Shown piece by piece: positions 2,645 through 61,077 of a DNA stretch of 64,000 nt (position 1 is the first letter of the stretch; each line of letters begins with the position of its first letter). The position numbers and the translations under genes are program-made. This DNA comes from a bacterium (GTDB lineage Bacteria; SAR324; JACQKK01): positions 313,117 to 377,116 of the forward strand of contig CBDBIG010000003.1 of the NCBI GenBank assembly GCA_965205845.1, given 5' to 3'. The notes under the pieces were generated by a model that saw only the letters and a list, made by a program, of their open reading frames with translations, did not search any database and was not told the DNA's origin.

Positions 2645-3679
2645 ATGCTAAGAAAAATGATGCGCGTTTTTTATCATCCAAGCGAGCAGCACTACCGCCC
2701 ATCGCGCACCTGGTTTCATGGACGCATCGAGCCCAATCCCGAGGTTGTTGCGCGCACCCAAAGCATTTTAAATGCACTGGAACAACACCCCAATTTTGCG
2801 TTTGAAGAACCCCCTAACCTTGATCCCACAAAAGACCTGCCTTTACTGGCAGAGGTGCACGATGAAGGCTACCTAAACACCTTAAAAACGGTGTGCGAGA
2901 GGCTGGACCCAGAGGAAGAGTTCTTTCCTTTTATGGCACGCCCCGACAAGGCCTTGTTGAAGGTGGCCTACCCCCGTGTGCGCATGGGCTATTATGCGGT
3001 CGATGGTTCCATGCCCTTATTAACCCGCTCTTTTACCACAGCCTTAGGAGCAGCCGCCAGCGCTTTGGCGGGTGCCAAGGCAGTGTTATCGGGTGAAAAA
3101 GCCGTATACAGTTTGTGCCGTCCCCCGGGGCATCATGCCAGCAGGGCATCGTACAGTGGGTATTGTCTGCTAAACAATGCCGCGTTGGCCGCGCAGCGTT
3201 TGTCTAAGCAGGGCAAAACCGCCATCCTCGACGTTGATTTTCATCATGGTAACGGAGTACAGGAAATTTTTTACGCACGTGAGGATGTGCTGTACGCCTC
3301 CTTACATGGTGATCCACGCCAAGCTTACCCTTTTATTTTGGGCGATAAAACCGAAACGGGAAACGGGGCAGGCTTGGGTTGCAACCATAATTTTCCCCTA
3401 CCCAAAGGCTGCAATTGGTCTTTGTATGCTCCCGCCTTAGAGGATGCCCTTGAGCGAATTGCCGCGTTTTCTCCCGACTTTCTAGTGGTAGGCCTTGGCT
3501 TTGATACCTATGCCAAAGATCCCATTGGTTTTTTTAAACTTGAGGTGTTGGATTTCGCTGCCATTGGAGCAAGGCTGGCGCAACTCCAATGCCCCACCTT
3601 GGTGGTCCAAGAGGGGGGCTATTGTGCACCTGAATTGGGGGATTTGGCGGTGGCTTTTTTTAGGGGCTTCGGGCATTAA
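2645..3679 (+). CDS. Histone deacetylase / acetoin utilization AcuC-family amidohydrolase (arginase-deacetylase fold)
   Basis: Contains DVDFHHGNGVQEIFY (the HDAC D-x-D-x-HHG-x-G motif) and GFDTYAKDP. The ORF-track start at 2288 runs through the tandem repeat, so the start was placed at the internal ATG at 2645 (MLRKMMRVFYHP). Confidence 0.8.
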   Translation: MLRKMMRVFYHPSEQHYRPSRTWFHGRIEPNPEVVARTQSILNALEQHPNFAFEEPPNLDPTKDLPLLAEVHDEGYLNTLKTVCERLDPEEEFFPFMARPDKALLKVAYPRVRMGYYAVDGSMPLLTRSFTTALGAAASALAGAKAVLSGEKAVYSLCRPPGHHASRASYSGYCLLNNAALAAQRLSKQGKTAILDVDFHHGNGVQEIFYAREDVLYASLHGDPRQAYPFILGDKTETGNGAGLGCNHNFPLPKGCNWSLYAPALEDALERIAAFSPDFLVVGLGFDTYAKDPIGFFKLEVLDFAAIGARLAQLQCPTLVVQEGGYCAPELGDLAVAFFRGFGH

Positions 3680-3752
3680 GGGGTTTGGATTTGGGGGGAT
3701 TTAGCGATGGCTTTTTTTAGGGGCTTCGGGCAAGGGGTTTGGATTTGGGGGG
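3643..3752. repeat. ~55-bp tandem duplication (x2) spanning the 3' end and stop codon of the HDAC gene
   Basis: GGCGGTGGCTTTTTTTAGGGGCTTCGGGCATTAAGGGGTTTGGATTTGGGGGG is followed by GCGATGGCTTTTTTTAGGGGCTTCGGGCAAGGGGTTTGGATTTGGGGGGGG. The first copy encodes the C-terminus AVAFFRGFGH and the stop codon. Confidence 0.85.
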
Positions 3753-8525: not shown

Positions 8526-8664
8526 TCAATTTCTCCTCATCACCCCGTTAACGGATTCTTCTCAAAGGCCATCAATTACGAAATCGATTACGCCAAAATC
8601 TTTGGTCCATTATTAAATATCTTACCTGTGGTAAGGGCCTCACAAACACCATTCATCTCCTTGC

Positions 8665-8831
8665 ACCACCATGCCCCATTTGCCAATAAGTATCTTGCTT
8701 TCAACGGCTTTTACGCACGCACCACCATGCCCCATTTGCCAATAAGTATCTTGCTTTCAACGGCTTTTACGCACGCACCACCATGCCCCATTTGCCAATA
8801 AGTATCTTGCTTTCAACGGCTTTTACGCATG
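8665..8831. repeat. 55/56-bp tandem repeat x3 in the intergenic region between the two paralogous OMP genes, 140-300 bp upstream of OMP-A
   Basis: CACCACCATGCCCCATTTGCCAATAAGTATCTTGCTTTCAACGGCTTTTACGCACG occurs at 8665, 8720 and 8776. Confidence 0.9.
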
Positions 8832-8866
8832 CACTCGCAGAACACACCCGCACCCTTAAAAGGTGT

Positions 8867-11443: not shown

Positions 11444-12160
11444 TTAGCGGGTGCCGTCTATTTCGAGGGGTTTAATTAGGGTGTCATCCAAGCGTTGTGC
11501 GTGGTGCTCGTCTTGCGGGGCTGCATCATCCTCCCCAACTTCCTCGTTGTCATCCAAGCGTTGTGCGTGGTGCTCGTCTTGCGGGGCTGCATCATCCTCC
11601 CCAACTTCCTCGTGACTAAAGAGCCCATCTTGGGGCAGTTCTGGGATATCTAAAGCCTCAAGGGTGGGGAGTTCTTTTAAGGTGCTAATGCCAAACAGGC
11701 TAAAAAATTTACCTGCCACCCCGTATAGCAAAGGGCGTCCGGGGCCTTCATCGCGCCCTGTGATGCGTACCAGGCGTTTTTCTAACAAGCCACGCAAACC
11801 GTTTGAAGAATCGACTCCACGTAAATGCTCTACTTCTGCGCGGCTGACGGGCTGACGGTAGGCAATGATGGATAAAATTTCCAACGCCGCAGGGGAAAGT
11901 TTGGTGGGTTTGTAACGGCTCAGCTGGCTTAGCCATGGTTTAAACATGGGCAGTGTGCGCATTTGGTAGGCTTCGCCCACTTTGGCAATATGAAACGCGT
12001 GCTCGGCCGTGCTGTATTGTTGGTTTAGGGTTTTAACCATGGAAGCAATACGTAAAGTACCATGCGGTTTAAGCAGGCGGTTTAATGCATGGCTCGAAAC
12101 AGGGTCGGCGCTGGAAAACAAAACCGCCTCCAAGACCCTCTTTGCATCGTTGTCTTCCAT
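11444..12160 (-). CDS. scpB: Segregation and condensation protein B
   Basis: N-terminal LEAVLFSSADPVS, winged-helix region SRAEVEHLRGVDSSNGLRGLLEKRLVRITGRDEGPGRPLLYGV, and an acidic C-terminal tail. Confidence 0.8.
   Translation of the reverse strand: MEDNDAKRVLEAVLFSSADPVSSHALNRLLKPHGTLRIASMVKTLNQQYSTAEHAFHIAKVGEAYQMRTLPMFKPWLSQLSRYKPTKLSPAALEILSIIAYRQPVSRAEVEHLRGVDSSNGLRGLLEKRLVRITGRDEGPGRPLLYGVAGKFFSLFGISTLKELPTLEALDIPELPQDGLFSHEEVGEDDAAPQDEHHAQRLDDNEEVGEDDAAPQDEHHAQRLDDTLIKPLEIDGTR
11483..11614. repeat. In-frame 66-bp tandem duplication inside the scpB 3' coding region (22-aa acidic repeat EEVGEDDAAPQDEHHAQRLDD x2)
   Basis: Identical 66-bp units at 11483-11548 and 11549-11614. 66 = 22 codons, so the reading frame is preserved. 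Confidence 0.9.
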
Positions 12161-15952: not shown

Positions 15953-16016
15953 TTTTTAGGGGTGGGACAAGGTTTTTGCCAACCGCCAATGGCGGGCAGC
16001 CCGCCCCACGCAAGAT

Positions 16017-16128
16017 GTGTGCTGTGATGCCCATAGGTGGCAAGGCAAGCAAAAGTGCCCCTTTGTGCGGGTGTGTGCTGTGATGCCCATAGGTGGCAGG
16101 GCAAGCAAAAGTGCCTCTTGCCCATGGA
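16017..16128. repeat. 56-bp tandem repeat x2 (GTGTGCTGTGATGCCCATAGGTGGCARGGCAAGCAAAAGTGCC...) upstream of leuB
   Basis: Near-identical units start at 16017 and 16073. Confidence 0.85.
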
Positions 16129-19740: not shown

Positions 19741-19770
19741 AGATCGTTTTTAGAGTGAGACAATATCTTG

Positions 19771-21078
19771 ATGAGCAAAGCACCCGCATTGCATTTAAAC
19801 CGTTCCAACGCACTGTTTCAGCAAGCCCAACAGCTGCTGGTGGGTGGGGTGAACAGTCCTGTGCGTACTTTTCGCGCAGTTGGGAACGCACACCCCTTGT
19901 TTATCCAAAAGGCAAAAGGGGCTTACGTGTATGATGTGGATGGCAATCGCTACCTCGATTACATGGGTGCCTGGGGTCCTATGATTTTAGGCCACGCCCA
20001 TGAAACCATTGAAAAAGCGGTGATTGAGGCCGTGAAGAATGGACTGGCCTTTGGCTTGTGCTGTGAAACCGAAATGGAACTGGCCAAAGCCGTACAAGCA
20101 TGCTGCCCCCATGTAGAACAAGTGCGCTTTGTGAATTCTGGGGGGGAAGCCGCGCAAACGGCCTTGCGCTTGGCACGCGGGTATACTAAACGAGAGAAGG
20201 TGGTGAAGTTTAACGGCTGCTATCATGGAAGCATCGACCCGCTGTTGGTCAAAGCGGGTTCGGGCCTGTCCACTTTAGGCATTCCCGATTCCGCGGGCGT
20301 AACCGCAGGCAGTGCGCAAGATACCCTGTGCGCCGAATTTAACGACCTTGAGAGTGTGATCGCATTGTTTGAGGCCAATGCGGGTGAGGTCGCAGCGCTT
20401 ATTTTAGAGATTATTCCTGGCAATATGGGGGTGGTAACCCCCAAACTACCCTTTTTACAAGGGTTAAGGGACTTGTGCGATCGCGAAGGTGCGGTGCTGA
20501 TTGCGGATGAGGTGATGACTGGCTTTAGGGTGGGTTTGGGTGGTGCGCATGCGCTATTTGGGCTTGTGCCCGATTTGATAATGTTTGGTAAAGTAATGGG
20601 CGGTGGCATGCCCGTAGGTGCGGTCGGGGGACGCACAGATATTATGCAAACTCTCTCGCCACAAGGGCCTGTGTACCAAGGGGGCACGCTGTCTGGTAAC
20701 CCTGTGGCCATGGCCGCTGGACTTGCTGCGTTAACCCTATTGCAACAACAAGAACGTGATGATGGGTTTTATGCCGAACTCAACCGCAAAAGCGCCATGC
20801 TATTGGATGGCCTAAAGAGCATTTGCAAAAGTGCGGACATTGGTGTGCAAACGTGCCATTTTGGGGGCATGCTAGGGTTTTACTTTAGCGATACTCCCGT
20901 AGAAAATTACCGCCAAGCGATGGCAGCCAATGGACCTCAGTATCAGCGTTTGTTTCGCGGCTTGCTTAAACGCGGGATCGTGTTTGCGCCCTCGGCTTTA
21001 GAAGCCGCTTTTGTATCGACAGCCCATGGCGAAGAAGAGATTGAGCAGACCCTTGATGCGATGAAAGAGGTGTTGTGA
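19771..21078 (+). CDS. hemL: Glutamate-1-semialdehyde 2,1-aminomutase
   Basis: GGVNSPVRTFRAVG N-terminal motif and the PLP lysine region MFGKVMGGGMPVGAVGG. The stop overlaps the next gene (ATGA). Confidence 0.92.
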   Translation: MSKAPALHLNRSNALFQQAQQLLVGGVNSPVRTFRAVGNAHPLFIQKAKGAYVYDVDGNRYLDYMGAWGPMILGHAHETIEKAVIEAVKNGLAFGLCCETEMELAKAVQACCPHVEQVRFVNSGGEAAQTALRLARGYTKREKVVKFNGCYHGSIDPLLVKAGSGLSTLGIPDSAGVTAGSAQDTLCAEFNDLESVIALFEANAGEVAALILEIIPGNMGVVTPKLPFLQGLRDLCDREGAVLIADEVMTGFRVGLGGAHALFGLVPDLIMFGKVMGGGMPVGAVGGRTDIMQTLSPQGPVYQGGTLSGNPVAMAAGLAALTLLQQQERDDGFYAELNRKSAMLLDGLKSICKSADIGVQTCHFGGMLGFYFSDTPVENYRQAMAANGPQYQRLFRGLLKRGIVFAPSALEAAFVSTAHGEEEIEQTLDAMKEVL

Positions 21079-21329
21079 TGTCACCAAACCCTCTCGGTGA
21101 AAGGAAACGAAAAGTCCCCCAAGCACCCAAAAAACCGCCGCAGCCTTCCTTGTGGAGCAAAGGCGTGCGATTTATGGCGGTGGGTGTTGAGGTAGCCGTT
21201 GCGATTTTGCTAAGCTTATGGGTGGGTCAGTGGCTTGACATCCGCCTTGGTAGCGAGCCTTGGCTATTGTTGGGATGCATGTTGGTTGGGATGATTGCCG
21301 CGCTCCGTATTTTAATGCGTTTGCGCTAG
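21075..21329 (+). CDS. atpZ: Small 2-TM membrane protein in the atpZ/AtpI-like position at the head of the F0 ATP synthase operon
   Basis: 84 aa. It has a basic N-terminus and two hydrophobic helices (VGVEVAVAILLSLWVGQWL / LLLGCMLVGMIAALRIL). It is immediately upstream of atpI-atpB-atpE. Its 3' end is the first unit of the 87-bp array. Confidence 0.6.
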   Translation: MMSPNPLGERKRKVPQAPKKPPQPSLWSKGVRFMAVGVEVAVAILLSLWVGQWLDIRLGSEPWLLLGCMLVGMIAALRILMRLR

Positions 21330-21790
21330 GCCTGCGGTTTGCACACAGCGCAGCTATTGGGATGCGTGTTGGTTGGGATGATTGCCGCGCTCCGTATTTT
21401 AATGCGTTTGCGCTAGGCCTGCGGTTTGCACACAGCGCAGCTATTGGGATGCGTGTTGGTTGGGATGATTGCCGTGCCCCGTATTTTAATGCGTTTGCGC
21501 TAGGCCTGCGGTTTGCACACAGCGCAGCTATTGGGATGCGTGTTGGTTAGGATGGTGGCCGCGCTCCGTATTTTAATGCGTTTGCGCTAGGCCTGCGGTT
21601 TGCACACAGCGCAGCTATTGGGATGCGTGTTGGTTAGGATGGTGGCCGCGCTCCGTATTTTAATGCGTTTGCGCTAGGCCTGCGGTTTGCACACAGCGCA
21701 GCTATTGGGATGCGTGTTGGTTGGGATGGTGGCCGCGCTCCGTATTTTAATGCGTTTGCGCTAGGCCTGCGGTTTGCACACAGCGCAGCT
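21265..21790. repeat. 87-bp tandem repeat x6 that begins inside the atpZ 3' end; every unit re-creates the atpZ C-terminal codons (…GMIAALRILMRLR) and the TAG stop
   Basis: Units start at 21281, 21368, 21455, 21542, 21629 and 21716 with exact 87-bp period (87 = 29 codons). Units differ by a few SNPs (GGTTGGGATGATTGCC vs GGTTAGGATGGTGGCC). The ORF track shows the repeated peptide AIGMRVGWDDCRAPYFNAFALGLRFAHSA in another frame. Confidence 0.95.
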
Positions 21791-21833
21791 TTGAAGAATG
21801 GGTTCGTAATACAAGCATGCAGCCAGGTGAGGG

Positions 21834-22205
21834 ATGATCGATAAATCTGCAAACGCACTTTCGTGGCGTAGAATAAGGTACTTGCTTTATGCCATTGCCG
21901 TTTTGGGCGGACTCATGGCAGGCTTGAGCCTGTGGTTTATAGGCAGCAAATTTGCTGGTGCGCTCTTGCTTGGGGTAGGCCTGGTGTTGTTGAACGTGTG
22001 GGGGACAGCACGATTTGCCTCTGCCTTGCTAAATAAGCAAAGGAAAAGTTTATTGTGGATTGCCTATCCCTTTAAACTATTGATAGACGTAGCCTTCGTC
22101 GTGTGGCTTATTGGATATGTGCAAATTGATCCCATTGGGTTTTTAGCGGGGCTCTCTACGCTGGCGATAGGGGTGGTGCTTTTTGCCTTCTACCCAAATG
22201 CTTAA
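21834..22205 (+). CDS. atpI: ATP synthase protein I (AtpI)
   Basis: 123-aa polytopic membrane protein directly upstream of atpB, with four hydrophobic helices. Call is positional plus topology. Confidence 0.6.
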   Translation: MIDKSANALSWRRIRYLLYAIAVLGGLMAGLSLWFIGSKFAGALLLGVGLVLLNVWGTARFASALLNKQRKSLLWIAYPFKLLIDVAFVVWLIGYVQIDPIGFLAGLSTLAIGVVLFAFYPNA

Positions 22206-22265: not shown

Positions 22266-22985
22266 ATGGCAGAACAAAATGCAATTACTTGGGGAGAACA
22301 GTTGCTTCCAGGGGTTGAGCACACGTTGGCGAAGTATGGCGTGGACCCCCATGCAGGGATTGACGCTGTGGTGGTGGGAGTTGCGCTGGTTGCCTTTGCC
22401 TATGTGGTTGGCCGTCCTTTTCGCAAAGGGCGCATGCTTGAGCCCAAAGGCAAGGCCAGTTACAGTTTTTTAGGAGAGGTCTTGGTGGGCGGCATGCTGA
22501 ACATGTTTAACGGAATTATTCGTAGTGGCGCAAGGCCGTTTTTTGTGCTACTGGGTTCCTTTGCTTTGTTTATTTTAGCAAACAATTTGATCGGTTTGAT
22601 CCCTGGGTTTCACCCACCCACCTCTCAGTACAACGTTACGGTGGTGATGGCGTTGATGGTGTTTTTTACGGCTCATTACACGGGGATTCGTCAACACAAA
22701 TTTGGTTATGTTAAAAAATTTTTGGGACCTTTGGTGTTGATAGCCCCGCTCATTTTTCCCATTGAAATCATCAGTCACCTCGTTCGCCCGCTTTCGTTGT
22801 CTGTACGTTTGTTTGGTAACATTACGGGTGACCATCAGGTGGTGTCGGTGTTTAGCTCGCTACTCGCTGTTGGATTGCCTGTGCCCTTTATGGCATTGGG
22901 CGTGCTTGTTTCTTTTTTACAAGCGTATGTGTTTGTTTTATTGGCAGCAGTATACTTTCAAGATGCACTAGACCACCCACACTAG
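22266..22985 (+). CDS. atpB: F0F1 ATP synthase subunit a
   Basis: [15 protein letters not shown] (the essential Arg of subunit a), multi-TM, 239 aa. Confidence 0.9.
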
Positions 22986-23092
22986 CCCCTGTTTGTTGTG
23001 CGTCGGGAGGGGAGGTATTGTACCTAAGTTACGCACAGGTTTATTGGATGACCGTGATCCGCCAACATTTTATGAAAGAAAAGAAAACATAC

Positions 23093-23404
23093 ATGAAACA
23101 AAAAACCTTATTTCTATTTGGCTTATTCATCTTGGCTTTGGCTACCCCGCTTTATGCTGCCACGGGCGAAGTTGCGACGTTGGGCCTGGCCTTAGGAGCA
23201 GGCATTGCCATTGGGATTGCTGCTTTAGGTGGTGGTATTGGTCAAGGTATCGCTGTTTCCAGTGCCTTAGAAGGCATTGCGCGCAACCCAAATGCGGCGG
23301 ATAAAATTTTTACCCCCATGATTATTGGCCTCGCCTTGATTGAATCGTTGGTAATTTACGGCTTGGTAATTGCGTTTATTTTGCAAGCAAAAATTGCTGT
23401 CTAG
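23093..23404 (+). CDS. atpE: F0F1 ATP synthase subunit c with an N-terminal signal-peptide-like extension
   Basis: c-subunit hairpin [25 protein letters not shown]...ARNP...[21 protein letters not shown] (with the ion-binding E). It is preceded by [24 protein letters not shown]. The start was placed at the ATG at 23093. The ORF-track start at 23018 is less likely. Confidence 0.85.
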
Positions 23405-23674
23405 CCTACTGATTGCTTGGCCTTAAAGCGATGAGGGGCACATTAGGGCAAAACAACACGCTCTTTGGTTTTTCTTTAAAAGGCGGCTAAAGGGCACGTT
23501 TGGGTGGGTACGTGTCGCCAAGCGATTTGGCGGATTGCTTGTTCCTTTCGCCCCTTGCCCCCGTTTACCGGGGGTTGCTTGGCTCGTACTTTTTGATGAG
23601 GCTATTTATCAGCATATGTGCAAGCTTTTGGCTGTGATACAAGGCCTTATGTAACCAACCACTTCCGCCCAAGA

Positions 23675-23860
23675 GCGATCTCATTCAATCCCGTCGCGTT
23701 GTGTTCGCCCGTAGCCGATCAAAAACCCTTGTGAAAGCGATCTCATTCAATCCCGTCGCGTTGTGTTCGCCCGTAGCCGATCAAAAACCCTTGTGAAAGC
23801 GATCTCATTCAATCCCATCGCGTTGTGTTCGCCCGTAGCCGATCAAAAACCCTTGTGAAT
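23675..23860. repeat. 62-bp tandem repeat x3 (GCGATCTCATTCAATCCCGTCGCGTTGTGTTCGCCCGTAGCCGATCAAAAACCCTTGTGAAA)
   Basis: Units at 23675, 23737 and 23799 in the gene-free region downstream of atpE. Confidence 0.9.
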
Positions 23861-24214: not shown

Positions 24215-24252
24215 GCCCTTGCGTATCACTTAAAGCGGGCAAGGGCTTTTTT
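24215..24252 (+). terminator. Rho-independent terminator candidate
   Basis: GCCCTTGCGTATCACTTAAAGCGGGCAAGGGC (8-bp GC-rich stem) followed by TTTTTT. Confidence 0.6.
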
Positions 24253-24473
24253 GGGGTTATTCTCTATTGCCTTGGTGCTGTGGGTTGGCTTTTCTTGGAG
24301 TGCTTCCTCTTGGGTAGGAGGCCTCGGCAGCACTCTCGAGCCTTGAAGCCCTTTTGCAAAAGCACCTTGCATTCTCTGGGGGCAGGCTTTACCCACAAAA
24401 CCTAAAACCGCGTTATGAATCGCTACGCTATTGCGGGCAAAAGCCCTTTTTTGAGCATGGCTTGCCCTTTGGT

Positions 24474-24593
24474 CGATTTCAAACACAGGTTCAAACACAG
24501 GTTCAAACACAGGTTCAAACACAGGTTCAAACACAGGTTCAAACACAGGTTCAAACACAGGTTCAAACACAGGTTCAAACACAGTGCCATCAA
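24474..24593. repeat. 12-bp microsatellite (CAGGTTCAAACA) x10
   Basis: Read directly. It yields the FEPV/QTQV/FKHR peptide repeats seen in three ORF-track frames. Confidence 0.95.
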
Positions 24594-24644
24594 TCGCAAT
24601 GCTCGCCTTGACCTTAAAACCCCAAACCCATTCCTTCTTGGACG

Positions 24645-25124
24645 CCAGCCACCTGTTCCGCAGAGCAGATTCGAAGCCACGAGCGTTTACAAATGCTGTC
24701 AACAGCCGTAAAAAAAGAGTACTTGCGTTACATGAGGCGCAATCACCGACGTGGTAGCCCTCCCATGCGCGCATCATGAAAGAAATGTGCTACACTGAGG
24801 TGTCCTACGAACAGGCTTGGTTGGCTCTGCAGCCAGTTAAGTCGTTCATCCAAGTTTTGGCCCTTTTTTTAAGTATCACATGTACCAGCCACCTGTTCCG
24901 CAGAGCAGGTTCGAAGCCACGAGCGTTTACAAATGCTGTCAACAGCCGTAAAAAAAGAGTACTTGCGTTACATGAGGCGCAATCACCGACGTGGTGGCCC
25001 TCCCATGCGCGCATAATGAAAGAAATGTGCTACACTGAGGTGTCCTACGAACAGGCTTGGTTGGCTCTGCAGCCAGTTAAGTCGTTCATCCAAGTTTTGG
25101 CCCTTTTTTAAGTATCACACGTAT
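24645..25124. repeat. 240-bp direct tandem duplication (x2), near-identical
   Basis: Unit 1 is 24645-24884 and unit 2 is 24885-25124 (CCAGCCACCTGTTCCGCAGAGCAG...GGCCCTTTTTTTAAGTATCACA). Each unit carries a sigma70-like TTTACA-N17-TAAAAA and a T-run. Confidence 0.95.
24686..24714 (+). promoter_or_regulatory. Candidate sigma70-type promoter (TTTACA - 17 bp - TAAAAA), repeated at 24926-24954 in the second 240-bp unit
   Basis: -35/-10-like hexamers with 17-bp spacer read directly. A T7 run at 24864-24870 lies about 150 nt downstream, a possible short transcript. Speculative. Confidence 0.3.
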
Positions 25125-27300: not shown

Positions 27301-27466
27301 AGAAATTTTCACATCTGCCAGCCCCGGCAATATGGGGGTGCTTTGCGTAAAAGGCATCCATGGTTGGCCTTGTCTACGTGGGGTGACTTTGCGTAAAGAG
27401 GCCCTGTGGTTGGGCTTTACTGCTCTATGGCAGTGCTCAACGCGCTGGGGCTGACTTGCCACAAGC

Positions 27467-27658
27467 AACGCTGAGGTGCACATTGTTGTAAACCGTGTTT
27501 GAAAGAGGGGCGCTCGATTGAAACCATGCTGTTTGACCGCGAACAACTCCCTTGCATTAAGCAACGCTGAGGTGCACATTGTTGTAAACCGTGTTTGAAA
27601 GAGGGGCGCTCGATTGAAACCATGCTGTTTGACCGCGAACAACTCCCTTGCATTGGCG
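27467..27658. repeat. 96-bp tandem duplication (x2) covering the RBS, start codon and first 11 codons of rimM
   Basis: Units at 27467-27562 and 27563-27658. Copy 1 contains ATGCTGTTTGACCGCGAACAACTCCCTTGCATT and runs into TGA, giving the decoy ORF MLFDREQLPCIKQR. Copy 2 is the real rimM start at 27622. Confidence 0.9.
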
Positions 27659-30559: not shown

Positions 30560-30990
30560 CAACGACAAGAACCATTTTACAACCACACCCCAGCAAGGTC
30601 GCTAAACCAGCATCGCCCCATGCAAAGGTGGAACGCACAAAGCACGGCGACAAGAACCATTTTACAACCACACCGCAGCAAGGTCGCTAAACCAGCATGA
30701 CCCCATGCAAAGGTGGAACGCACAAAGCACGGCGACAAAAACCATTTTACAACCACACCCCAGCAAGGTCGCTAAACCAGCATCGCCCCATGCAAAGGTG
30801 GAACGCACAAAGCACGGCGACAAAAACCATTTTACAACCACACCCCAGCAAGGTCGCTAAACCAGCATCGCCCCATGCAAAGGTGGAACGCACAAAAGCA
30901 CGGCGACAAAAACCATTTTACAACCACACCCCAGCAAGGTCGCTAAACCAGCATCGCCCCATGCAAAGGTGGAACGCACAAAAGCACAGC
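30560..30990. repeat. 85/86-bp tandem repeat x5 between the gamma-CA-like gene and nfeD
   Basis: Marker ACCATTTTACAACCACACC occurs at 30571, 30656, 30741, 30826 and 30912. The units encode nothing recognisable. Confidence 0.9.
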
Positions 30991-31574: not shown

Positions 31575-32426
31575 ATGTTTTTTTATCGCATCCCCCAAGC
31601 CCATGTGATGGTGGTTGAACGCTTGGGTAAATTTCACCGCATTTGCCAGCCTGGTTTAAGGGTACTTTTGCCCATACTCGATTACCCCAAAGAAATGCCC
31701 GAATGGGAAGGGCGTGGAGTACGCTTAGTGGGCAGCCGTCCTATTTTGGTGGAGCTGGCAGAGCAATCTTTAGGGACAGAACCACGTGCGAGCATTACCC
31801 GCGACAACGTGCAGCTGCGTGTTGACACGCTTATTTATTGGCAGGTTACCGATGTGATGCGTGCCGTGTATGAAGTAGATGTGCTGCCCAATGCCATTTT
31901 GGATCTTACCCTGACCACCTTGCGCTCGGTAATTGGCAGCATGAACATGGATGAGGCCATTAGCAACCGCCTAAAAATTAACGACGCTGTGCAAACCGAG
32001 CTTCAAGGTGCGGTGGAAAAATGGGGGGTGCGGGTCAACCGTGTGGAAATTCAAGAACTGCATGCCTCGGATGAAGCCTCTGCGGCAATGCTGAAACAAA
32101 TGACCGCTGAGCGTGAAAAACGCGCAGCCGTTACCGAAGCCGAAGGGAAAAAAGCCGCCGCTATTTTAGAGGCAGAAGGCTATCGCGAGGCGGTGCTCAT
32201 CCGTTCAAAGGCGGATGCGGATGCCATGAAGGAGTTTGCCCGTGGGGAAGCAGAATTTCTAAAACCACTCCACCAAGTGCTGGGAGAAAAGAACGGAATG
32301 AATTTTGCTCTCGCTGCAAAATACCTCCGCACCCTTGGCAGCATGGATGAAACAGCCAAGGTGTTTTTGCCCTTAAACCTGGCTGAAGCCATTGATACGG
32401 TTTTACGCGGCACGGGCAAAAAATAA
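31575..32426 (+). CDS. SPFH/band-7 (stomatin-like) protein
   Basis: VVERLGKFHRICQPGLRVLLPILD, a band-7 core, and a Glu/Ala-rich coiled-coil tail. Canonical nfeD-SPFH pair. Confidence 0.85.
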   Translation: MFFYRIPQAHVMVVERLGKFHRICQPGLRVLLPILDYPKEMPEWEGRGVRLVGSRPILVELAEQSLGTEPRASITRDNVQLRVDTLIYWQVTDVMRAVYEVDVLPNAILDLTLTTLRSVIGSMNMDEAISNRLKINDAVQTELQGAVEKWGVRVNRVEIQELHASDEASAAMLKQMTAEREKRAAVTEAEGKKAAAILEAEGYREAVLIRSKADADAMKEFARGEAEFLKPLHQVLGEKNGMNFALAAKYLRTLGSMDETAKVFLPLNLAEAIDTVLRGTGKK

Positions 32427-32831
32427 GGGCATTTGCAAAAGTGGTTGCTTTTAAGCAATCTTGCAAGCCTCATTCAAGCATTGTTATAGACGCGGCACGG
32501 GCAAAAAATAAGGGCATTTGCAAAAGCAGTTGCTTTTAAGCAATCTTGCAAACCTCATTCAAGCATTGTTATAGACGCGGCACGGGCAAAAAATAAGGGC
32601 ATTTGCAAAAGCAGTTGCTTTTAAGCAATCTTGCAAGCCTCATTCAAGCATTGTTATAGACGCGGCACGGGCAAAAAATAAGGGCATTTGCAAAAGCAGT
32701 TGCTTTTAAGCAATCTTGCAAGCCTCATTCAAGCATTGTTATAGACGCGGCACGGGCAAAAAATAAGGGCATTTGCAAAAGCAGTTGCTTTTAAGCAATC
32801 TTGCAAACCTCATTCAAGCATTGAATAGAAA
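32407..32831. repeat. 85-bp tandem repeat x5 that starts inside the SPFH gene 3' end (includes the TAA stop) and fills the whole intergenic space up to the next start codon
   Basis: GCGGCACGGGCAAAAAATAAGGGC marker at 32407, 32492, 32577, 32662 and 32747 with exact 85-bp period. The first unit encodes …LRGTGKK-stop. Confidence 0.95.
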
Positions 32832-35709: not shown

Positions 35710-36594
35710 ATGGTGACACCCCCCCCTTGCCTTACCAACGCAGATACACCCCAAAAAACGCGTCAACTGCTGGGTGAGCGGCTGCAAACGTTTGTACCCA
35801 GGCCCCCACCCTATCCGCTGATTATGGGCATTATCAACGTCACCCCAAACTCGTTTAGCGATGGTGGCGACCTACCCCAGCTCGAGGATGTGCTCCGTCG
35901 GGCAGGCACCTTAAAGGGCGAAGGGGCAGATATTTTAGATGTAGGTGGGGCGTCCTCACATCCCAATGCCCCCCATACCCCAATTAAAGTGGAATTACAG
36001 CGCGTTGTGCCCGTGGTGAAAACCCTACACCAGCAAGGATTGGGACCTATTTCAATCGATACCCAACACCCTGCTGTCGCGCAGCAATGCCTGCACGCAG
36101 GGGCGCACCTAATCAACGATGTAAGCGGCCTTTGCACCACCCAAACCCCCAACGCTGATATGGCCGCGATCGCTGCTCAATTTGGAGCGCCGCTGGTGAT
36201 CACCTGCAACCATTTGAACCAACCCCCTCCCCCCAACACGCCTTTGTTAGAAGGGATGCTCCATTTTTTTAAGCAGCGCATTACCGCCGCCAAAAAGCAC
36301 GGGGCGACCCAACTTATTTTGGATCCTGGGTATGGTTTTGGCAAAAGCCTGCCCCAAAACTTGCAAACTTTGCGCGAACTTTCAAGTTTAATCCCTTTGG
36401 GTTACCCTATTTTAACCTGCACTTCGCGCAAAGGTTCCCTTGGCAAGTTAAGCGCAGAACCCAAACCAAAGGAACGCCTAGGTGCCGGTTTGGCAAGTGC
36501 ATTCTTTGCGCTGAAACAAGGGGCTAGCATTGTGCGTACCCATGATGTAAAACCCTTGCACCAGTTCGTTCATCTATGGCACACTTTGCGGTGA
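35710..36594 (+). CDS. folP: Dihydropteroate synthase
   Basis: IMGIINVTPNSFSDGGD (the DHPS N-terminal motif), DILDVGG, and GASIVRTHDV (C-terminal motif). The start is uncertain (ORF-track ATG at 35653; a later ATG at 35710 was used). Confidence 0.85.
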   Translation: MVTPPPCLTNADTPQKTRQLLGERLQTFVPRPPPYPLIMGIINVTPNSFSDGGDLPQLEDVLRRAGTLKGEGADILDVGGASSHPNAPHTPIKVELQRVVPVVKTLHQQGLGPISIDTQHPAVAQQCLHAGAHLINDVSGLCTTQTPNADMAAIAAQFGAPLVITCNHLNQPPPPNTPLLEGMLHFFKQRITAAKKHGATQLILDPGYGFGKSLPQNLQTLRELSSLIPLGYPILTCTSRKGSLGKLSAEPKPKERLGAGLASAFFALKQGASIVRTHDVKPLHQFVHLWHTLR

Positions 36595-37240
36595 CCCGCG
36601 CACAACATAGGCTAGGCAACACCTTATATAAATTTTTTTGTTTTTATGGCGTAAAAAAATTAAAGCATCGTTATTGCGCTTTTTGTATGTGATGTTTTGC
36701 GCAAGGCTTGGGCGTTGGCGGCTTGGCCACTGTACGCGCGTTTTCTCACATCATTTCAAAATACAGTCAATTAAGAAGCACGCAAGCCTGCTTGCCGCCG
36801 ATATTTCCTTGCGCAAAACACGCCTTTTTACGGCAGCCGAAAAGCGTGAGGTAAAACGCTTGCAACAAGCAAAGGCGCGCGTTGTGCGGACCCATGATGC
36901 TAAAACCCTTGCACCAGTTCGTTCATCTATGGAACCCCTTACGATGACCCACGCACAATTTGGCTATGAGCAGGACCTTAAATGAACTTTTTTTGGTTTT
37001 TATGGCGTAAAGAAATCAAAGCCTCGTTATTGCGCTTTTTGTTTGTGATGTTTTGCGCAGGCTTGGGCGTTGGCGGTTTAGCCACTGTACGCGCGTTTTC
37101 TCACACCATTCAAAATACGGTCAATCAAGAAGCACGCAGCCTGCTTGCCGCCGATATTTCCTTGCGCAAAACGCGCCCTTTTACGGCAGCCGAAAAGCGT
37201 GAGGTAAAACGCTTGCAACAAGCAGGGGCGCGCGTTGTGC
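36530..37240. repeat. ~355-bp tandem duplication spanning the folP 3' end, the intergenic spacer and the first ~85 codons of the downstream FtsX-permease gene
   Basis: Unit 1 is about 36530-36885 and unit 2 about 36886-37240. GTGCG[GT]ACCCATGATG...CACCAGTTCGTTCATCTATGG..., TTTTTATGGCGTAAA[AG]AAATCAAAG...CGCTTTTTGT[AT]TGTGATGTTTTGCGCA...GCCACTGTACGCGCGTTTTCTCACA...CGCTTGCAACAAGCA. About 93% identity. The junction lies at the short homology TTGTGC. Confidence 0.9.
36638..36985 (+). pseudogene. Chimeric ORF created by the 355-bp duplication: N-terminal 80 aa of the FtsX-permease fused to a diverged copy of the FolP C-terminus
   Basis: MFLWRKKIKASLLRFLYVMFCARLG...LLAADISLRKTRLFTAAEKREVKRLQQAKARVVRTHDAKTLAPV. 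Compare the real gene MNFFWFLWRKEIKASLLRFLFVMFCAGLG...LLAADISLRKTRPFTAAEKREVKRLQQAGARVVQ and the FolP end VRTHDVKPLHQFVHLWHTLR. Confidence 0.6.
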
Positions 37241-39696: not shown

Positions 39697-42600
39697 TCAC
39701 AGGGCATCTGCCAAGCCAACGGGTTGGTATTTCCATGAAACAAAGTGCCTTTGCAACGCAAAGTACACCCCAAGGCAAATGGGCAAACGGGCATCCCACC
39801 GATAAAAGGCATCGCCATAGGCTTGGAGCTGGGCTTTGTGCTCGTCGATTCTTTCTGCAATAAAGGCTTCCAGTTGCACACCTCGCAATTCATGGGTTTG
39901 TCCTTCCACTTTATAGTCTACAATCCAGCGAATTTTCTGATGTACAAAACTGCGATCAAGAATGCGTTTTTTGGGTTGATTGGAACCGTTGGCAACCCAC
40001 AAGGGCATTTCCGTAACTCCTGGACAACGCAATAGCCAGCGTCCATTTGCATCGGTTATCACGTTGTTTAAGGCGTGTTGTACCGTTTGCACCGCTTGGG
40101 TTAAATGGCCTAAATCGACCCCTTGGGCAAGCAAACGCGCCTTGATTTGAGCCTGCAACGCTGCAATTTTGGTGCTGTTCCAGCCCTGCAAACCATCGTT
40201 AGCCATTTGCATTAGCAAAGCATGGACTTCTTCCCCCACCAAGCGGTTGGTATGCCTGGCATGGTCAAAGTCATGGAAACCCAAGGCTTCTTTTACGCTC
40301 GCTTCTTCCTTTGCGCCTTGGGTTTGGGTCCATCTGTCATCCCAAGGGGGATCGGGTAAACCGGGAGGATAATCGACGCACTGCCACCCAAGGTTAAGGC
40401 GTTGAAGCATGCGGGGGGTGGCTTCTGCGGGTTGATCCGTTGTTTGGGCGGCAAAGGGGGGCTGCGTCTTGGCTTCATGTGTTGCGCTGAGGGAGTCTGG
40501 TACGCTGTTTTTAATGGCTTTTTCTTCGCCACCATCCCACAGGAAGCGTAGAAATGAGCCTTGTTCAGGCAGGTTTTTTCCTGGTCCTTGGGGTGCTGCA
40601 ACCTTGAGTTCCCCGCCCAGCAAAATATGTTTTTTGGCACGGGTAACAGCCACATACAACAAGCGTAGGGCCTCGTTTGCCTGGCGTTGTTTGTCGCGTT
40701 GCGCCAACCATTCATATAAGCTGGGCTCTTTTTGAGCCGCTGCGTCATATGCGTTAGGACGCGGTGCCATGAACACCGCCTGTGCCAGGAGGTTTGGTGT
40801 GGGTTGCTTGTGCGCCAGGGAGTCACCCGGGGTGTCATCCATGCTCGTGTTAAGCGCACCTTTTTCCCAGCGCAGCACAGAGGTATCGCTGTTCTTTACC
40901 CCAAAATGCAAACCAGGCAGCACCACCACATCAAATTCGGTCCCCTTGGCTTTGTGTATGCTCATTACCTGCACCTGTTGTAAACTACTCGGCTGGTTGG
41001 GGGCATACACCTTGGCGAGGCGCGCCTCTAAGGCATAAGGCCAAGGGAGTTCTCCACCTTGTAGGGGTTTTTCAAGTTGAGCAAAGCAGGCTTGCACAGT
41101 GTGCAATGCTTGGGTTTGTATCGTGATATTAGGGTTTTGGAGTGTTGCGGGACCATTAAGAGCCAGCCAGCATCCTTCGACCCAATCGCGCAGGGCAAGG
41201 CGCTCACGCAGGACGAAAGCCGCTTTAAATGCATGCAGCACGGGCTGAATACGTGCGCGGCCATCGAGGCTTAAGGTGGCCTGCACTGCGGGGTTTTGCA
41301 GCCTTTCGTACACGCTTAACAGCGTTGTATCATGGCCGTTGTGGACAGATGGGCAGATTTGATGCAAATCGCTGAGGCACAAACCACACCAAGGGGCACG
41401 CAACACAGCCATCCATGCAATGGCATCATCTGGTAGGTAAAGGGCATGTACCAAGCTTGAAATATCAAGGGCTTCTTGTTGCGTGCCCAAGGTTTCAAGG
41501 TCAACCCCCTGGTATGCTATCCTATGCAAACGCATGGCTTGCAAAAAGGGTTGTACGTGCTTTCGGGTACGAAACAACACAGCCACACGGGGTGTTTGCT
41601 GGTGCAAGGTGGTGTCTTGCTGCATGCAACTTTGCAAGCGCATCGCCAATTGTTGCGCCCAATCAGGGGGCGCATGGCTCGGTGTAGCCTCTCGGTTTGG
41701 GGTGCATACATAGGCGATGCATGGCGTGTGCGGGTGGTTCCTTGGCGGGATACTGGTTTGTGGAGGCATGGCTTGGGCAAAGCGAATGGCACCCAACGCT
41801 GCATATTGTTTTGCGGGAGACATCTGCTCAAATATCCGATTTGTCCAGCGAATAAGGGCAGGGCTGGAGCGAAAATTGACTTGCAAGCGTAAAAACTGGG
41901 GTTTAACCTGGCCTAAGCCATGGTCAATCACATGTAAAAATACCGCCACCTCAGCGCCCCGAAAGCGATAAATGGCCTGCATGGGGTCGCCCACCAAAAA
42001 TAAACTATTCTCCTGGCCGTCGTTAAAATGGCGGGTAAGCAAAGTGAGAAGTTGCAACTGGGTGTGGGAGGTATCTTGAAACTCATCCACCAGCAAATGG
42101 TGCAAACCCGTTTTTCCAAAGGCGTGAAGAAAAGGTGCTTCATCCAGTACAAGCAAAGCATCTTGGGTAATTTGCAGGTAATCAATGCCCCCTTCTTGCG
42201 CAAACAATGCTTGCAGGCATTGGTTGGCATGCCACGCCATGCGCATGATGGCTTGCAGCTCTTGCCCTTGTACTTTTGCAAAAGGTGGGGCGCAATAGTG
42301 TCTTACATCACTTAAGCCTGCAACCGCATGCGGCACAGCAGCCAATTGTTTGAGCAGAAGCTTCATTTCTCGTTTGGCTTGCTCGCCTGCGCCCCCCCCC
42401 ATTTGTTTATTGAGGTAGCCGAGGTTTTTGTCGAGATTTTTTCGTACCCTACCTGCTTGGGTGAGTAAAAAAGCCGCCCAACTGCGCCATAGGCCAAGGC
42501 ATTGTTGCAGCCCTTGGTAAAACTGGGTGGGTGTTTGAAAATCACTGTCCTTGGGTGTTTGAGGCCAGTTATCAACTTTGGCCAAAGCCGTTAAGAGCGA

Positions 42601-43497
42601 TGGTTCATTCCCTTGTTCGGTTAAAATACGCACGGCCCGCTGTGCTTGCTGCGCAAAGGCTTGGCCCAGATGGGTTTGTTCCAAGGTTTGTTCCAAGGTC
42701 CCCAACGATTGCTGTAGCCAGTAAGCCCATGCTTGGTTGTGCTGTTGGAGCCACTCACGCCATGGTTGCGCGTTTGGCGTGTTTTTGGTGTTGCTGGCAT
42801 GAGGGCTTAACATGCCAAGCCACTGATCGCGGGTTCTTAGCATATGGGCCAGCATGCTGGCTGCTTGCATGTACTGGTTGTCCATGTAATCCAAAAAAGA
42901 TCCCGCTGCTTGAGACAACGGACCCTCCTTTTCCAGCGCACTCAAAGCCTGCATGGCTGCGCGTTGATACAGCAATTCGGAATCATCAAGTACCGTGTTG
43001 CTGCCGCTTGTTTTACGCTGAAAAGGGGCACTGCGTACAATGTGGGAGCACAGGGAATCGATGGTTTGAATGCGCAAGCGATGTGGCATTTCCAGCAGTT
43101 GCCAGTTTTTTTCTTGGTTGCGTGTATACGCTGCCAGGGCTAGTTGCTGGCGCCCTTGTTCTTGGGTACTAGGTTTGGCAGCGGCATCTTTGGAGTGGGA
43201 TTGAGGCACCCCCTCTTGTAAAGCGTTCAATACACGCTGGCGCATTTCGGCAGCAGCTTTTTTGCTAAAGGTAATGGCCAGTACGTGCTCTGGCTCTTCC
43301 ACCTGTGCCAGCAATGCCAACACGCGCTGGATAAGAAGCTCGGTTTTACCCGAACCTGCTGGAGCTTGTACAATAAACGAGTGCTTGGTGCAGAGTGCTT
43401 GTTGGCGCAGCGCATCATCAGGAGAAGCCTGGGCTGGTATATCAGCAGTGCGCGAGTACGTCGTGTGTTGGGTGTCCTTGTTTTGCATATCGCTCAT
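39697..43497 (-). CDS. addA: ATP-dependent helicase/nuclease subunit A (AddA; UvrD-family helicase plus C-terminal RecB-type nuclease)
   Basis: Walker A FIVQAPAGSGKTELLIQRVLALL, UvrD-like motifs, and the C-terminal nuclease motif ILDRSFVHQKIRWIVDYKVEGQ (G-x-ID-x... IVDYK). 1266 aa. The start overlaps the addB stop by 4 bp. Carries a C9 tract at 42392-42400. Confidence 0.85.
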   Translation of the reverse strand: MSDMQNKDTQHTTYSRTADIPAQASPDDALRQQALCTKHSFIVQAPAGSGKTELLIQRVLALLAQVEEPEHVLAITFSKKAAAEMRQRVLNALQEGVPQSHSKDAAAKPSTQEQGRQQLALAAYTRNQEKNWQLLEMPHRLRIQTIDSLCSHIVRSAPFQRKTSGSNTVLDDSELLYQRAAMQALSALEKEGPLSQAAGSFLDYMDNQYMQAASMLAHMLRTRDQWLGMLSPHASNTKNTPNAQPWREWLQQHNQAWAYWLQQSLGTLEQTLEQTHLGQAFAQQAQRAVRILTEQGNEPSLLTALAKVDNWPQTPKDSDFQTPTQFYQGLQQCLGLWRSWAAFLLTQAGRVRKNLDKNLGYLNKQMGGGAGEQAKREMKLLLKQLAAVPHAVAGLSDVRHYCAPPFAKVQGQELQAIMRMAWHANQCLQALFAQEGGIDYLQITQDALLVLDEAPFLHAFGKTGLHHLLVDEFQDTSHTQLQLLTLLTRHFNDGQENSLFLVGDPMQAIYRFRGAEVAVFLHVIDHGLGQVKPQFLRLQVNFRSSPALIRWTNRIFEQMSPAKQYAALGAIRFAQAMPPQTSIPPRNHPHTPCIAYVCTPNREATPSHAPPDWAQQLAMRLQSCMQQDTTLHQQTPRVAVLFRTRKHVQPFLQAMRLHRIAYQGVDLETLGTQQEALDISSLVHALYLPDDAIAWMAVLRAPWCGLCLSDLHQICPSVHNGHDTTLLSVYERLQNPAVQATLSLDGRARIQPVLHAFKAAFVLRERLALRDWVEGCWLALNGPATLQNPNITIQTQALHTVQACFAQLEKPLQGGELPWPYALEARLAKVYAPNQPSSLQQVQVMSIHKAKGTEFDVVVLPGLHFGVKNSDTSVLRWEKGALNTSMDDTPGDSLAHKQPTPNLLAQAVFMAPRPNAYDAAAQKEPSLYEWLAQRDKQRQANEALRLLYVAVTRAKKHILLGGELKVAAPQGPGKNLPEQGSFLRFLWDGGEEKAIKNSVPDSLSATHEAKTQPPFAAQTTDQPAEATPRMLQRLNLGWQCVDYPPGLPDPPWDDRWTQTQGAKEEASVKEALGFHDFDHARHTNRLVGEEVHALLMQMANDGLQGWNSTKIAALQAQIKARLLAQGVDLGHLTQAVQTVQHALNNVITDANGRWLLRCPGVTEMPLWVANGSNQPKKRILDRSFVHQKIRWIVDYKVEGQTHELRGVQLEAFIAERIDEHKAQLQAYGDAFYRWDARLPICLGVYFALQRHFVSWKYQPVGLADAL

Positions 43498-46400: not shown

Positions 46401-46691
46401 TGTATTGGCAACGTTCCATCCGCAACGTGCAATTACTTGCTCCCACATAAGCCGTTCTTGCCACATATCCAAGGGCCATGGGGCTACATGCTGCGCGTCG
46501 AATCGGCCCAAGCGCAGTGCTTGCCACAGGCTACGTACCCATTCGTGCCAAACCACAATGTAAGAATCTTCCCAAACCCGCAGGCCTGCTTGGTATTTTT
46601 GCGCGTCATATTGTGTGGTGAGTTCATGCTGCAAACGCTTATTTGCAGTGAGTGTGAGCGTGGTTTGTGGGCGTTTTTGGAAGGCTTCCAT
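43494..46691 (-). CDS. addB: ATP-dependent helicase/nuclease subunit B (AddB) with Fe-S-stapled PD-(D/E)xK nuclease domain
   Basis: C-terminal AAVLLDYKTGE nuclease motif, and the cysteine cluster DDACEYCDFTAFCRIK typical of the AddB iron-sulfur staple. 1065 aa. Contains the in-frame PAD x9 repeat and two 9-nt A/T homopolymers. Confidence 0.8.
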   Translation of the reverse strand: MEAFQKRPQTTLTLTANKRLQHELTTQYDAQKYQAGLRVWEDSYIVVWHEWVRSLWQALRLGRFDAQHVAPWPLDMWQERLMWEQVIARCGWNVANTRNSRTTPLHNPTTTHKPLTPAKAAALAQQAWGLLCEWHVVGWNTTIGAFLQPHAKEAFAHTLQLEAKVFVNWALAFGQAMHTQGWCSQEQVASLVVHALEREHYLGEQGSTQGFGFMLPTNMVLCGFDVLTPQQERLFDALRTLQVVVEWVPVNVPASTWLALPRAQAEPQPQRQAPPPLANPPTVHPYSNSQKELEGALLWARDLSQKNPKQKIAIIHPNLQEEWQRVHTVCTQYLSPIKTLITHATEAGAAKPFNLSYAPPLSEQGLVQAALLLLQSPLVARSAKHFVQWVTSPFIVGATAERIPRARFAHRFLATWVEPFSVRHVLQQAQRSGVELQTWCQPMQAWKNAWQLAQTTHKMPSQWAHFFLNLLHTAGWTLGFSKNGSQTEGGLNSTEAQAKKRFLKALQVFSTLDGIQNTQTTNLWSANQAFAWLQRIVAETPFQAEGFEASLHILGPWQASGLFFDHLWVLGFDDQHWPPPPMPHALLPLAFQRDHQMPRSSAARELALGKMSLTRLLHSAKQVVISHATQQLDSEEERRPSSLLQTITPPPIVTKGAMPTPPHTAWMAMLDHAQSHSPWQSCPDSNGPPIDVSTLKGGASLLQDIALCPFRSFARHRLMLQKKTLAQTGLDALTRGNIVHWVLEIFWHDAAQSQSELRALLAKPLAFKQALERTIGRVIRVSNPADPADPADPADPADPADPADPADPADPAAQAKPSEAQASKKTVMLSPAAARLEGKRITRLLTAWLEKEAMERGDFCVGKQEEKLDFSVVGLPLSLRLDRLDYVECSLESNAQEAVEAAVLLDYKTGETLPLHSWQNEERITQPQLPLYALAWLQKQAQQPAQQQKPLMALAFAKLHRKGMEMIGLSEVTFKDSLFGNKVSTWGKNPWPTQPALLARWQQAFEKSVKQFSRGAAQVDPQDDACEYCDFTAFCRIKAKEGPLGTPKKSHLGDSENTQEGIFLK
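44259..44339. repeat. 9-bp microsatellite (GGGGTCTGC) x9 inside addB, in frame (encodes PADPADPAD... on the minus strand)
   Basis: Read directly. 9 perfect units. The ORF track shows PADPADPADPADPADPADPADPADPA within AddB. Confidence 0.95.
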
Positions 46692-46846
46692 CTGTTTTGT
46701 TCCATTGTTTTAAAAAGAGCTGCTCTTTTTTGCACACGTATCCCCATCTTTAAAATCTCACAAACGAAGTACAAGTGCCATGAGAACGATGGCTTGTTAT
46801 CGGCATAACCCTTGTGGCTATCGCAATTTAAATCGGTCTGATAGGG

Positions 46847-47062
46847 CACAAAGCCAAACGCACCTTGATTCTCGCGCTCAAGGATTTTCTTTTCTGCATG
46901 CCAGCGTCCAAGTTTTATCCCATTTTTCCCTGCGCTGCTTCCTTGTGCACAAAGCCAAACGCACCTTGATTCTCGCGCTCAGGGATTTTCTTTTCTGCAT
47001 GCCAGCGTCCAAATTTTGTCCCATTTTTCCCTGCTTCGGGTTCCTTGTGCACAAAGCCAAAC
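46847..47062. repeat. 101-bp tandem duplication (x2, bounded by a 13-bp direct repeat CACAAAGCCAAAC) covering the thyX 3' end, stop codon and downstream
   Basis: Units at 46861-46960 and 46961-47062 have a few SNPs and one small indel. This makes the ThyX C-terminus FGFVHKEPEAGK...GAFGFVHKEAAQGKMG-stop with FGFVHKE twice. 101 is not a multiple of 3, so the copies are read in different frames. Confidence 0.9.
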
Positions 47063-60871: not shown

Positions 60872-61077
60872 AAGGGGCCACGGTTATGGGTAAAAAAGGA
60901 ATCTGCAATAGGATTTTTAAACGCGCACACCATGCATCAATTCGGGGTCCATGGCTTGCATCAAGGTGGGTACAAGGGCTGTTTTTTTATTAAGAGGATG
61001 ACCACCCACCTCATTAAAAAGGGTATTTGAACACGGCATTCCCCAGTTCCCATTACGCGGTTCTTGTACGGAACAAT

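Follow-up and report, generated by a model that had tools for sequence, protein, structure and literature searches.

An 87-bp tandem array between atpZ and atpI in a SAR324-like bacterium is probably a young local minisatellite

In enterobacteria, the REP, BIME and ERIC elements are imperfect palindromes scattered over the genome, and their action depends on stable stem-loops. For the MIRU-VNTR loci of Mycobacterium tuberculosis (Supply et al. 1997, cited in PMC3635867 and PMC12548453), the repeats are described as dispersed, homologous and apparently mobile; according to PMC12548453, MIRUs are inserted at start codons, with the MIRU open reading frame (ORF) coupled to the downstream gene at -4 nt, and in PMC3635867 they are proposed to affect expression. 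In Ehrlichia ruminantium, non-coding tandem repeats undergo active expansion and contraction, according to PMC10710844, which summarizes Collins et al. 2005 and Frutos et al. 2006. With regard to ATP synthase operons, an atpZIB3E3 operon has been described in Pelobacter carbinolicus (PMC3543383), and a link between AtpZ and Mg2+ acquisition has been drawn in Bacillus pseudofirmus OF4 (PMC4453477). A literature search on tandem repeats in SAR324 genomes returned nothing relevant. Here, we describe a tandem array of six 87-bp units that separates atpZ from atpI in a bacterium of the SAR324 lineage. The array lies in a 64,000-nucleotide stretch of DNA (GenBank assembly GCA_965205845.1, contig CBDBIG010000003.1, positions 313,117 to 377,116 of the forward strand), which is called the window throughout and whose first nucleotide is position 1.

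The array belongs to a known phenomenon, namely, bacterial minisatellites formed by local duplication of a gene end. It is probably a young local minisatellite that arose by slippage or unequal recombination and is tolerated as a mutational by-product. As far as the window goes, it looks like one: 87-bp copies lie head to tail, the unit is taken from local sequence, and many unrelated arrays are found nearby, enriched in non-coding DNA. A CRISPR array was considered and rejected, because each unit starts exactly 87 nt (one unit length) after the previous one, with no unique spacer in between. The array and its parts are as follows.

21263-21269, + strand: GCTATTG, left member of an imperfect short direct repeat flanking the amplified segment (direct reading)
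21270-21791, + strand: array of six 87-bp units (Tandem Repeats Finder, unit comparison and in-frame translation)
21270-21356, + strand: unit U1
21357-21443, + strand: unit U2
21444-21530, + strand: unit U3
21531-21617, + strand: unit U4
21618-21704, + strand: unit U5
21705-21791, + strand: unit U6
21330-21791, + strand: redundant part of the array, consisting of the 27 spacer-derived nt of U1 plus U2-U6
21788-21793: GCT-TTG, right member of the flanking imperfect direct repeat (direct reading)

Tandem Repeats Finder (TRF) reported the segment 21270-21790 with a period of 87, 6.0 copies, 97% matches, 0% indels and a score of 965. This bore out the six near-identical units, 522 bp in total, that had been proposed in an earlier reading of the letters alone (the sequence-only reading). 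A 50-nt core of the unit had exactly 6 matches in the window, all of them inside the array, and 0 matches in 100 dinucleotide shuffles. Each unit is composed of 57 nt from the atpZ coding sequence, the stop codon TAG and 27 nt from the spacer. U1 is the native 3' end of atpZ (19 codons plus TAG) together with 27 nt of spacer, that is, the original and not a copy, and U2-U6 are five extra in-frame copies with a total length of 435 bp. In-frame TAGs are found at 21327, 21414, 21501, 21588, 21675 and 21762, with a spacing of 87 nt. When read through in the atpZ frame, the region gives ...LRILMRLR and a stop, followed by five near-copies of ACGLHTAQLLGCVLVGMIAALRILMRLR, each with its stop, with the peptide variants AVP in U3, VRMVA in U4 and U5, and GMVA in U6. 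The earlier proposal that every unit encodes the atpZ C terminus plus a stop in frame was thus correct, with small variants in the later units.

When the units were cut in register, they differed pairwise at 0 to 5 positions, and U4 was identical to U5. ATGATTGCC is common to U1-U3 and ATGGTGGCC to U4-U6, and U3 has two private changes. Every one of the six variable sites in U2-U6 alters the encoded residue when read in the atpZ frame (M>V, G>R, I>V through two sites of the same codon, A>V and L>P), and the G>R and L>P changes fall within a hydrophobic helix. Thus, the copies are not kept as coding sequence, and U2-U6 can be read as pseudo-C-termini that bear no sign of coding constraint. An ORF call at 21260-21550 runs across the array and is possibly spurious.

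The array is embedded in an operon whose genes were identified as atpZ, atpI, atpB and atpE in the sequence-only reading, and Pfam searches agreed with all four identities.

19768-21078, + strand: hemL-type glutamate-1-semialdehyde aminomutase gene (Pfam PF00202, 9.9e-77)
21075-21329, + strand: atpZ, 84 aa from GTG 21075 or 83 aa from ATG 21078 (PF09527, 5.9e-14)
21792-21833, + strand: unique remainder of the atpZ-atpI spacer, 42 nt (sequence reading)
21834-22205, + strand: atpI, 123 aa (PF03899, 4e-06, above the gathering score)
22266-22985, + strand: atpB, F0 subunit a (PF00119, 8.9e-47)
23018-23404, + strand: atpE, F0 subunit c (PF00137, residues 59-122), whose true start is probably downstream of 23018

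The homologs of HemL carry the source name glutamate-1-semialdehyde 2,1-aminomutase, and the TGA stop of hemL overlaps the start of atpZ (GTGATG, 21075-21080). In AtpZ, residues 32-82 align with profile positions 3-53 of the 54 of PF09527; the conserved domain is therefore complete, and the residues encoded by U1 are needed to complete it. The atpZ stop (TAG, 21327-21329) comes directly after the second hydrophobic helix, and the last 60 nt of the gene lie within U1. Past the array, further in-frame stops are found at 21792 (TGA), 21807 (TAA) and 21828 (TGA). The segment 21825-21833 reads AGGTGAGGG, a Shine-Dalgarno-like sequence whose function is deduced from its complementarity to the 3' end of 16S rRNA; since it stands directly before the ATG, atpI has a Shine-Dalgarno-like sequence of its own. 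A terminator-like hairpin is located 3' of atpE at 23515-23541.

For comparison, 160 related loci comprising 1.93 Mb were used, 67 of which had a recognizable atpZ upstream of atpB. The array was absent from all 67. The atpZ-atpI-atpB arrangement is common to most of these relatives, some of which (e.g., L001, L003 and L081) also have hemL directly upstream of atpZ, and the gene order and gene families here are the same as in the atpZ-atpI-atpB-atpE operons of the former Deltaproteobacteria. Unlike in the related atpZ-atpI operons, however, the AtpZ tail is missing here and atpZ is separated from atpI by 504 nt, 435 of which are repeat copies. Where an atpI-sized ORF was present (61 of the 67 loci), its first possible start lay -29 to +29 nt from the atpZ stop (median, -23), with a value of -4 for the closest relative, L081. 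This confirmed the earlier view that the array sits inside a normally tight operon. Between the stop of atpZ and the start of atpB, there were 192 to 728 nt (median, 397) in the 67 loci, versus 936 nt here; after subtraction of the five extra units (435 bp), 501 nt would remain, inside the range of the relatives. Judged from these distances, the array is thus a derived insertion into a normally overlapping junction. Alignment of AtpZ with 14 relatives showed that the core is intact and that their hydrophilic C-terminal tail of 20-35 residues is missing here. In the relatives, including L081 and L002-L005 in the alignment, the tail coding sequence is overlapped by the atpI start, and the 69 nt of non-repeat spacer here may be a degenerate remnant of the tail.

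The bacterium itself is distant from anything sampled so far. The closest AtpB reached 53% identity in 185,579 species genomes and 58-60% in the JGI metagenomes, the sources being SAR324, Lambdaproteobacteria and unclassified 'Deltaproteobacteria' metagenome-assembled genomes (MAGs). HemL had a match of 100% identity only to its own single 877,621-bp contig, and the next best match was 61%. Neither exact look-ups with AtpI, AtpZ, AtpB, Ffh and HemL nor AtpB scans of genomes and metagenomes found a conspecific sequence in the collections searched.

The atpZ array is one of many in the window. TRF detected 12 arrays with a period of at least 40 nt, covering 3,679 bp or 5.7% of the 64 kb, and a direct-repeat search added two weaker ones, for a total of 14. 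This amounts to about 1 long-period tandem duplication per 5 kb. In the related loci, 3 arrays with a period of at least 40 nt were found in 1.93 Mb, which predicts 0.1 per 64 kb and is about 100-fold fewer per base, a contrast that is large, though inflated because short-read MAGs under-represent repeats. No such array was found in the loci from contigs of 0.4-1.1 Mb (L001, L024, L047, L060 and L072). The thirteen further arrays of the window have periods of 54-353 bp and 86-100% identity and lie mostly at gene boundaries. They are listed here with the atpZ array, and unit length (bp) and copy number are given for the arrays that overlap a gene 3' end.

2368-2476: further array
3637-3752: array at the 3' end of an HDAC-like gene, 57 x 2
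8663-8834: further array
11482-11613: further array
16016-16119: further array
21270-21791: array at the 3' end of atpZ, 87 x 6
23674-23859: further array
24645-25123: further array
27455-27654: further array
30563-30987: further array
32405-32823: array at the 3' end of an SPFH gene, 85 x 4.9
36530-37240: array at the 3' end of folP, 353 x 2
46846-47062: array at the 3' end of thyX, 101 x 2.1
55294-55400: array at the 3' end of a class II aminoacyl-tRNA synthetase gene, 56 x 1.9

Thus, 6 of the 14 arrays overlap a gene 3' end, and in the HDAC-like gene, atpZ, the SPFH gene and folP the repeated unit includes the stop codon. Another array separates rpsP from rimM. Only 24% of the array bases lie within ORFs, compared with 76% for the window, whose ORF coverage is ~76-85%. 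Some of the other arrays have diverged, with 10% differences and indels. The 353-bp duplication at 36530-37240 spans the 3' end of folP and the 5' end of a MacB/FtsX-like gene. Copy 1 preserves an intact folP and copy 2 an intact start of the MacB-like permease gene; the inner half-copies, which are redundant, contain stops and show ~10% divergence. This decay is the expected neutral fate of a tandem duplication that spans a gene boundary, and the atpZ array fits the same course at an earlier stage.

The arrays of the window are independent of one another, with unrelated units. Among the k-mers shared by array units, the best 6-8-mers were no more frequent than in random segments, and a Chi-like recombination motif shared among the arrays was accordingly rejected. 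Pairwise unit alignments scored at or near the top of the null range (top score, 29; null maximum, 26), with the top scores belonging to the longest units. A dispersed repeat family was also rejected, because the direct-repeat families with units of at least 48 nt in the window were all local tandem arrays. Homology between the two 85-bp arrays (30563-30987 and 32405-32823) was rejected as well, at a score of 17 versus a null median of 14.

Some arrays of E. ruminantium reportedly also duplicate gene fragments. The present case resembles that species in having many independent long-period arrays that lie in non-coding DNA and stem from local duplication, together with long intergenic regions. 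It differs in that the organism is unrelated, its nearest relatives being SAR324/Lambdaproteobacteria-like at 53-61% protein identity, and in that copy-number variation among strains was shown for E. ruminantium, whereas the array here is known from one genome and 64 kb. Like MIRU-VNTR loci, the array consists of 40-100-bp tandem units between operon genes that are presumably cotranscribed, with short ORFs in register with the flanking genes. Unlike a MIRU, its unit is a copy of the local gene end that is confined to its own array and shares nothing with the other arrays, and instead of a -4 coupling, the last stop of the array lies 39-69 nt from the atpI start (TAG 21762 and TGA 21792; ATG 21834). 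An identity as a MIRU was therefore rejected: the location between operon genes agrees with it, whereas neither a dispersed family nor the -4 coupling was found. Similar to REP, BIME and ERIC elements, the array is repetitive DNA that would be transcribed between cistrons and could shift the balance of expression between the genes on its two sides; unlike them, it has a unit that is not scattered and whose folding is no more stable than that of shuffled sequence.

In the explanation that we favor, an 87-90-bp segment comprising the last 19 codons of atpZ, the TAG and the first 27 nt of the spacer would have been duplicated in tandem. The initial copy probably arose when replication slipped between GCTATTG and GCT-TTG, a candidate site for such an event given that slipped-strand mispairing relies on short direct repeats. 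The array would then have grown to six units as copies slipped or recombined unequally with one another, and the identical U4 and U5 would mark the latest expansion step. The array is most likely transcribed passively in the hemL-atpZ-atpI-atpB-atpE message, as a 504-nt untranslated and weakly structured spacer. Its tolerance would be due to the intact neighbors: atpZ is complete, with its stop, in copy 1, and atpI retains its own Shine-Dalgarno-like sequence and ATG. The probable side effect would be that the atpZ-atpI overlap is gone, along with whatever translational coupling the relatives have. Given the density seen in the 64-kb window, the array would be one product of a tandem-duplication process active across the genome and not an ATP-synthase-specific device.

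Several points weigh against this explanation. Many relatives conserve the gene overlap that the array interrupts, and the loss of this overlap could well change the expression of atpI, atpB and atpE, contrary to the presumed neutrality. It is also the highest-copy long-period array of the window, and the 3' 52 nt of the unit are invariant in all 6 copies. The clustering of the variable sites at unit positions 10-35 was considered as a sign of constraint on these 52 nt and rejected, since ~4 independent events give an estimated p of ~0.08, which is not significant. In addition, the species is represented by a single genome, and copy-number polymorphism, the hallmark of an active minisatellite, is hence without an observation here. 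Finally, short-read MAG assemblies break or collapse where they meet such arrays, which biases the comparison of repeat densities.

It is rather unlikely that the array is instead a regulatory spacer, selected for uncoupling atpZ from atpI-atpB-atpE and for lowering or tuning downstream expression through partial termination, RNA processing, or decaying termination-reinitiation through six short in-frame ORFs, with the copy number acting as a rheostat or contingency switch. Because the array has replaced the overlap or near-abutment conserved in the 61 related loci, some effect on translational coupling is plausible; since an in-frame TTG, GTG and ATG occur in each unit soon after the previous TAG, reinitiation is conceivable; and MIRUs illustrate operon repeats with coupled ORFs (PMC12548453) and a proposed effect on expression (PMC3635867). 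However, neither a sigma-70-like promoter nor an intrinsic-terminator-like site was found within 21075-21834, and the nearest terminator-like sites to the array on the + strand are at 20993 and 22523. RNA structure does not help either. Of the 6-bp stem proposed earlier for each unit, the complementary hexamers TGCGCT and AGCGCA are present at unit positions 53-58 and 78-83, but there is no structure beyond chance: 87-nt folds in four registers gave z values of +1.1, +1.1, +1.4 and -0.8 against dinucleotide shuffles, and the whole 504-nt spacer folded worse than 100 of 100 shuffles (z, +2.9). As an Rfam scan of the array region also gave no family at threshold, a stable stem-loop per unit or a structured RNA was rejected. 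With 172 G and 110 C, the spacer is rich in G and poor in C, and such RNA is a poor substrate for Rho loading. The last in-frame stop, the TGA at 21792, is 39 nt from the atpI ATG and offers no MIRU-like -4 coupling, and the array is absent from every relative examined. Moreover, ~12 unrelated arrays lie at other gene boundaries of the window, including that of rpsP and rimM, and thus the presence of the atpZ array is explained without selection. With no terminator-like or sigma-70-like site, no counterpart in relatives and 12-14 unrelated arrays in the window of which it is one, the earlier suggestion that the array tunes the atpZ:atpIBE ratio was not sustained. Likewise, it is quite improbable that the array is a copy-number-variable spacer that uncouples the ancestrally overlapping atpZ and atpI, with the number of units setting F0 (atpI-atpB-atpE) relative to hemL and atpZ. 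If this were true, it would be an expression rheostat or contingency locus in a core bioenergetic operon, derived from E. ruminantium-type genome-wide duplication in a deep-branching, uncultured SAR324-like lineage.

An assembly artifact, in which the copy number or the array itself came from mis-assembled repetitive reads, is very unlikely. There is a single assembly only, and tandem arrays are error-prone in assembly, but the substitutions are ordered along the array (ATT GCC in U1-U3, GTG GCC in U4-U6, G>A in U4-U5 and the two private changes in U3) and thus look like a real history, not like stutter or collapse. The same contig also has a dozen other arrays, 54-353 nt in period and 90-100% identical, diverged ones among them. 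Even less credible, to the point of being extremely improbable, is TAG readthrough or recoding (e.g., by pyrrolysine) that would lengthen AtpZ, in a series of isoforms, by one to five hydrophobic modules of 29 residues each. The period equals 29 codons exactly, as the sequence-only reading pointed out, and the atpZ frame stays open from each TAG to the next. Nevertheless, the period has no consequence because every unit has its own stop, and a period divisible by 3 is a 1-in-3 chance, with periods of 85, 85, 62, 56, 101 and 353 nt among the other arrays of the window. A weak match to Rfam PYLIS_2 (RF02509) was found at 21548-21642, but its 21 bits (E, 0.02-0.04) are far below the gathering score of 36, and the UAG that it aligns, at 21548, is the U4 G>A variant and out of the atpZ frame; PYLIS or pyrrolysine readthrough was therefore rejected as a chance match. 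TAG is an ordinary stop in 10 of the 48 window ORFs, and the extra modules would bear the G>R and L>P changes. The young minisatellite thus remains the preferred explanation.

Other repeats of the window deserve mention in their own right. The two 85-bp arrays, with 5.0 and 4.9 copies, stand on either side of an nfeD-SPFH pair, which looks like a coincidence. At 11482-11613, a perfect in-frame 66-bp x 2 duplication (gene at 11444-12160, - strand) has lengthened the C-terminal tail of ScpB by 22 acidic residues (EEVGEDDAAPQDEHHAQRLDD). At 44255-44344, ten perfect 9-bp repeats encode (PAD)x10 within an AddB-like PD-(D/E)XK nuclease gene (43494-46691, - strand), beside which a 1266-aa ORF (39697-43497) is probably the putative AddA partner. 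The 11-bp unit GCAAAAAGGGC occurs in tandem at 61078-61112 (3.3 copies) and 62955-63024 (6.4 copies), ~1.9 kb apart, and is the only repeat unit of the window at more than one locus; the second site lies between ORFs, and the first overlaps a weak 97-aa ORF call (60917-61210, - strand). The 1.7-kb gap between atpE and ffh contains both a perfect 12-bp x 8.9 array (TTCAAACACAGG) at 24478-24584 and the 240-bp x 2 duplication at 24645-25123, and ORF calls across these arrays (e.g., 24226-24777) are probably spurious. The thyX-like ORF at 46915-48591 (- strand) encodes a 558-aa product that has two Thy1 stretches and far exceeds the ~220-250 aa usual for ThyX, and the 101-bp duplication at its 3' end, not being divisible by 3, has changed the C-terminal reading frame.

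For the ATP synthase operon, the array has little import: it is best regarded as tolerated junk that marks where a duplication can land without killing a gene, and the atpZ-atpI overlap is evidently dispensable in this lineage. The aspect that deserves most attention is not the ATP synthase locus but the density of young tandem duplications in an unsampled lineage, with arrays almost always at gene boundaries and several of them showing redundant gene ends in visible decay. For annotation pipelines, this calls for caution, as spurious ORFs may be called across such arrays. If the pattern is genome-wide, this bacterium would provide a second, unrelated case beside E. ruminantium for how duplication shapes intergenic length, gene termini and operon structure.

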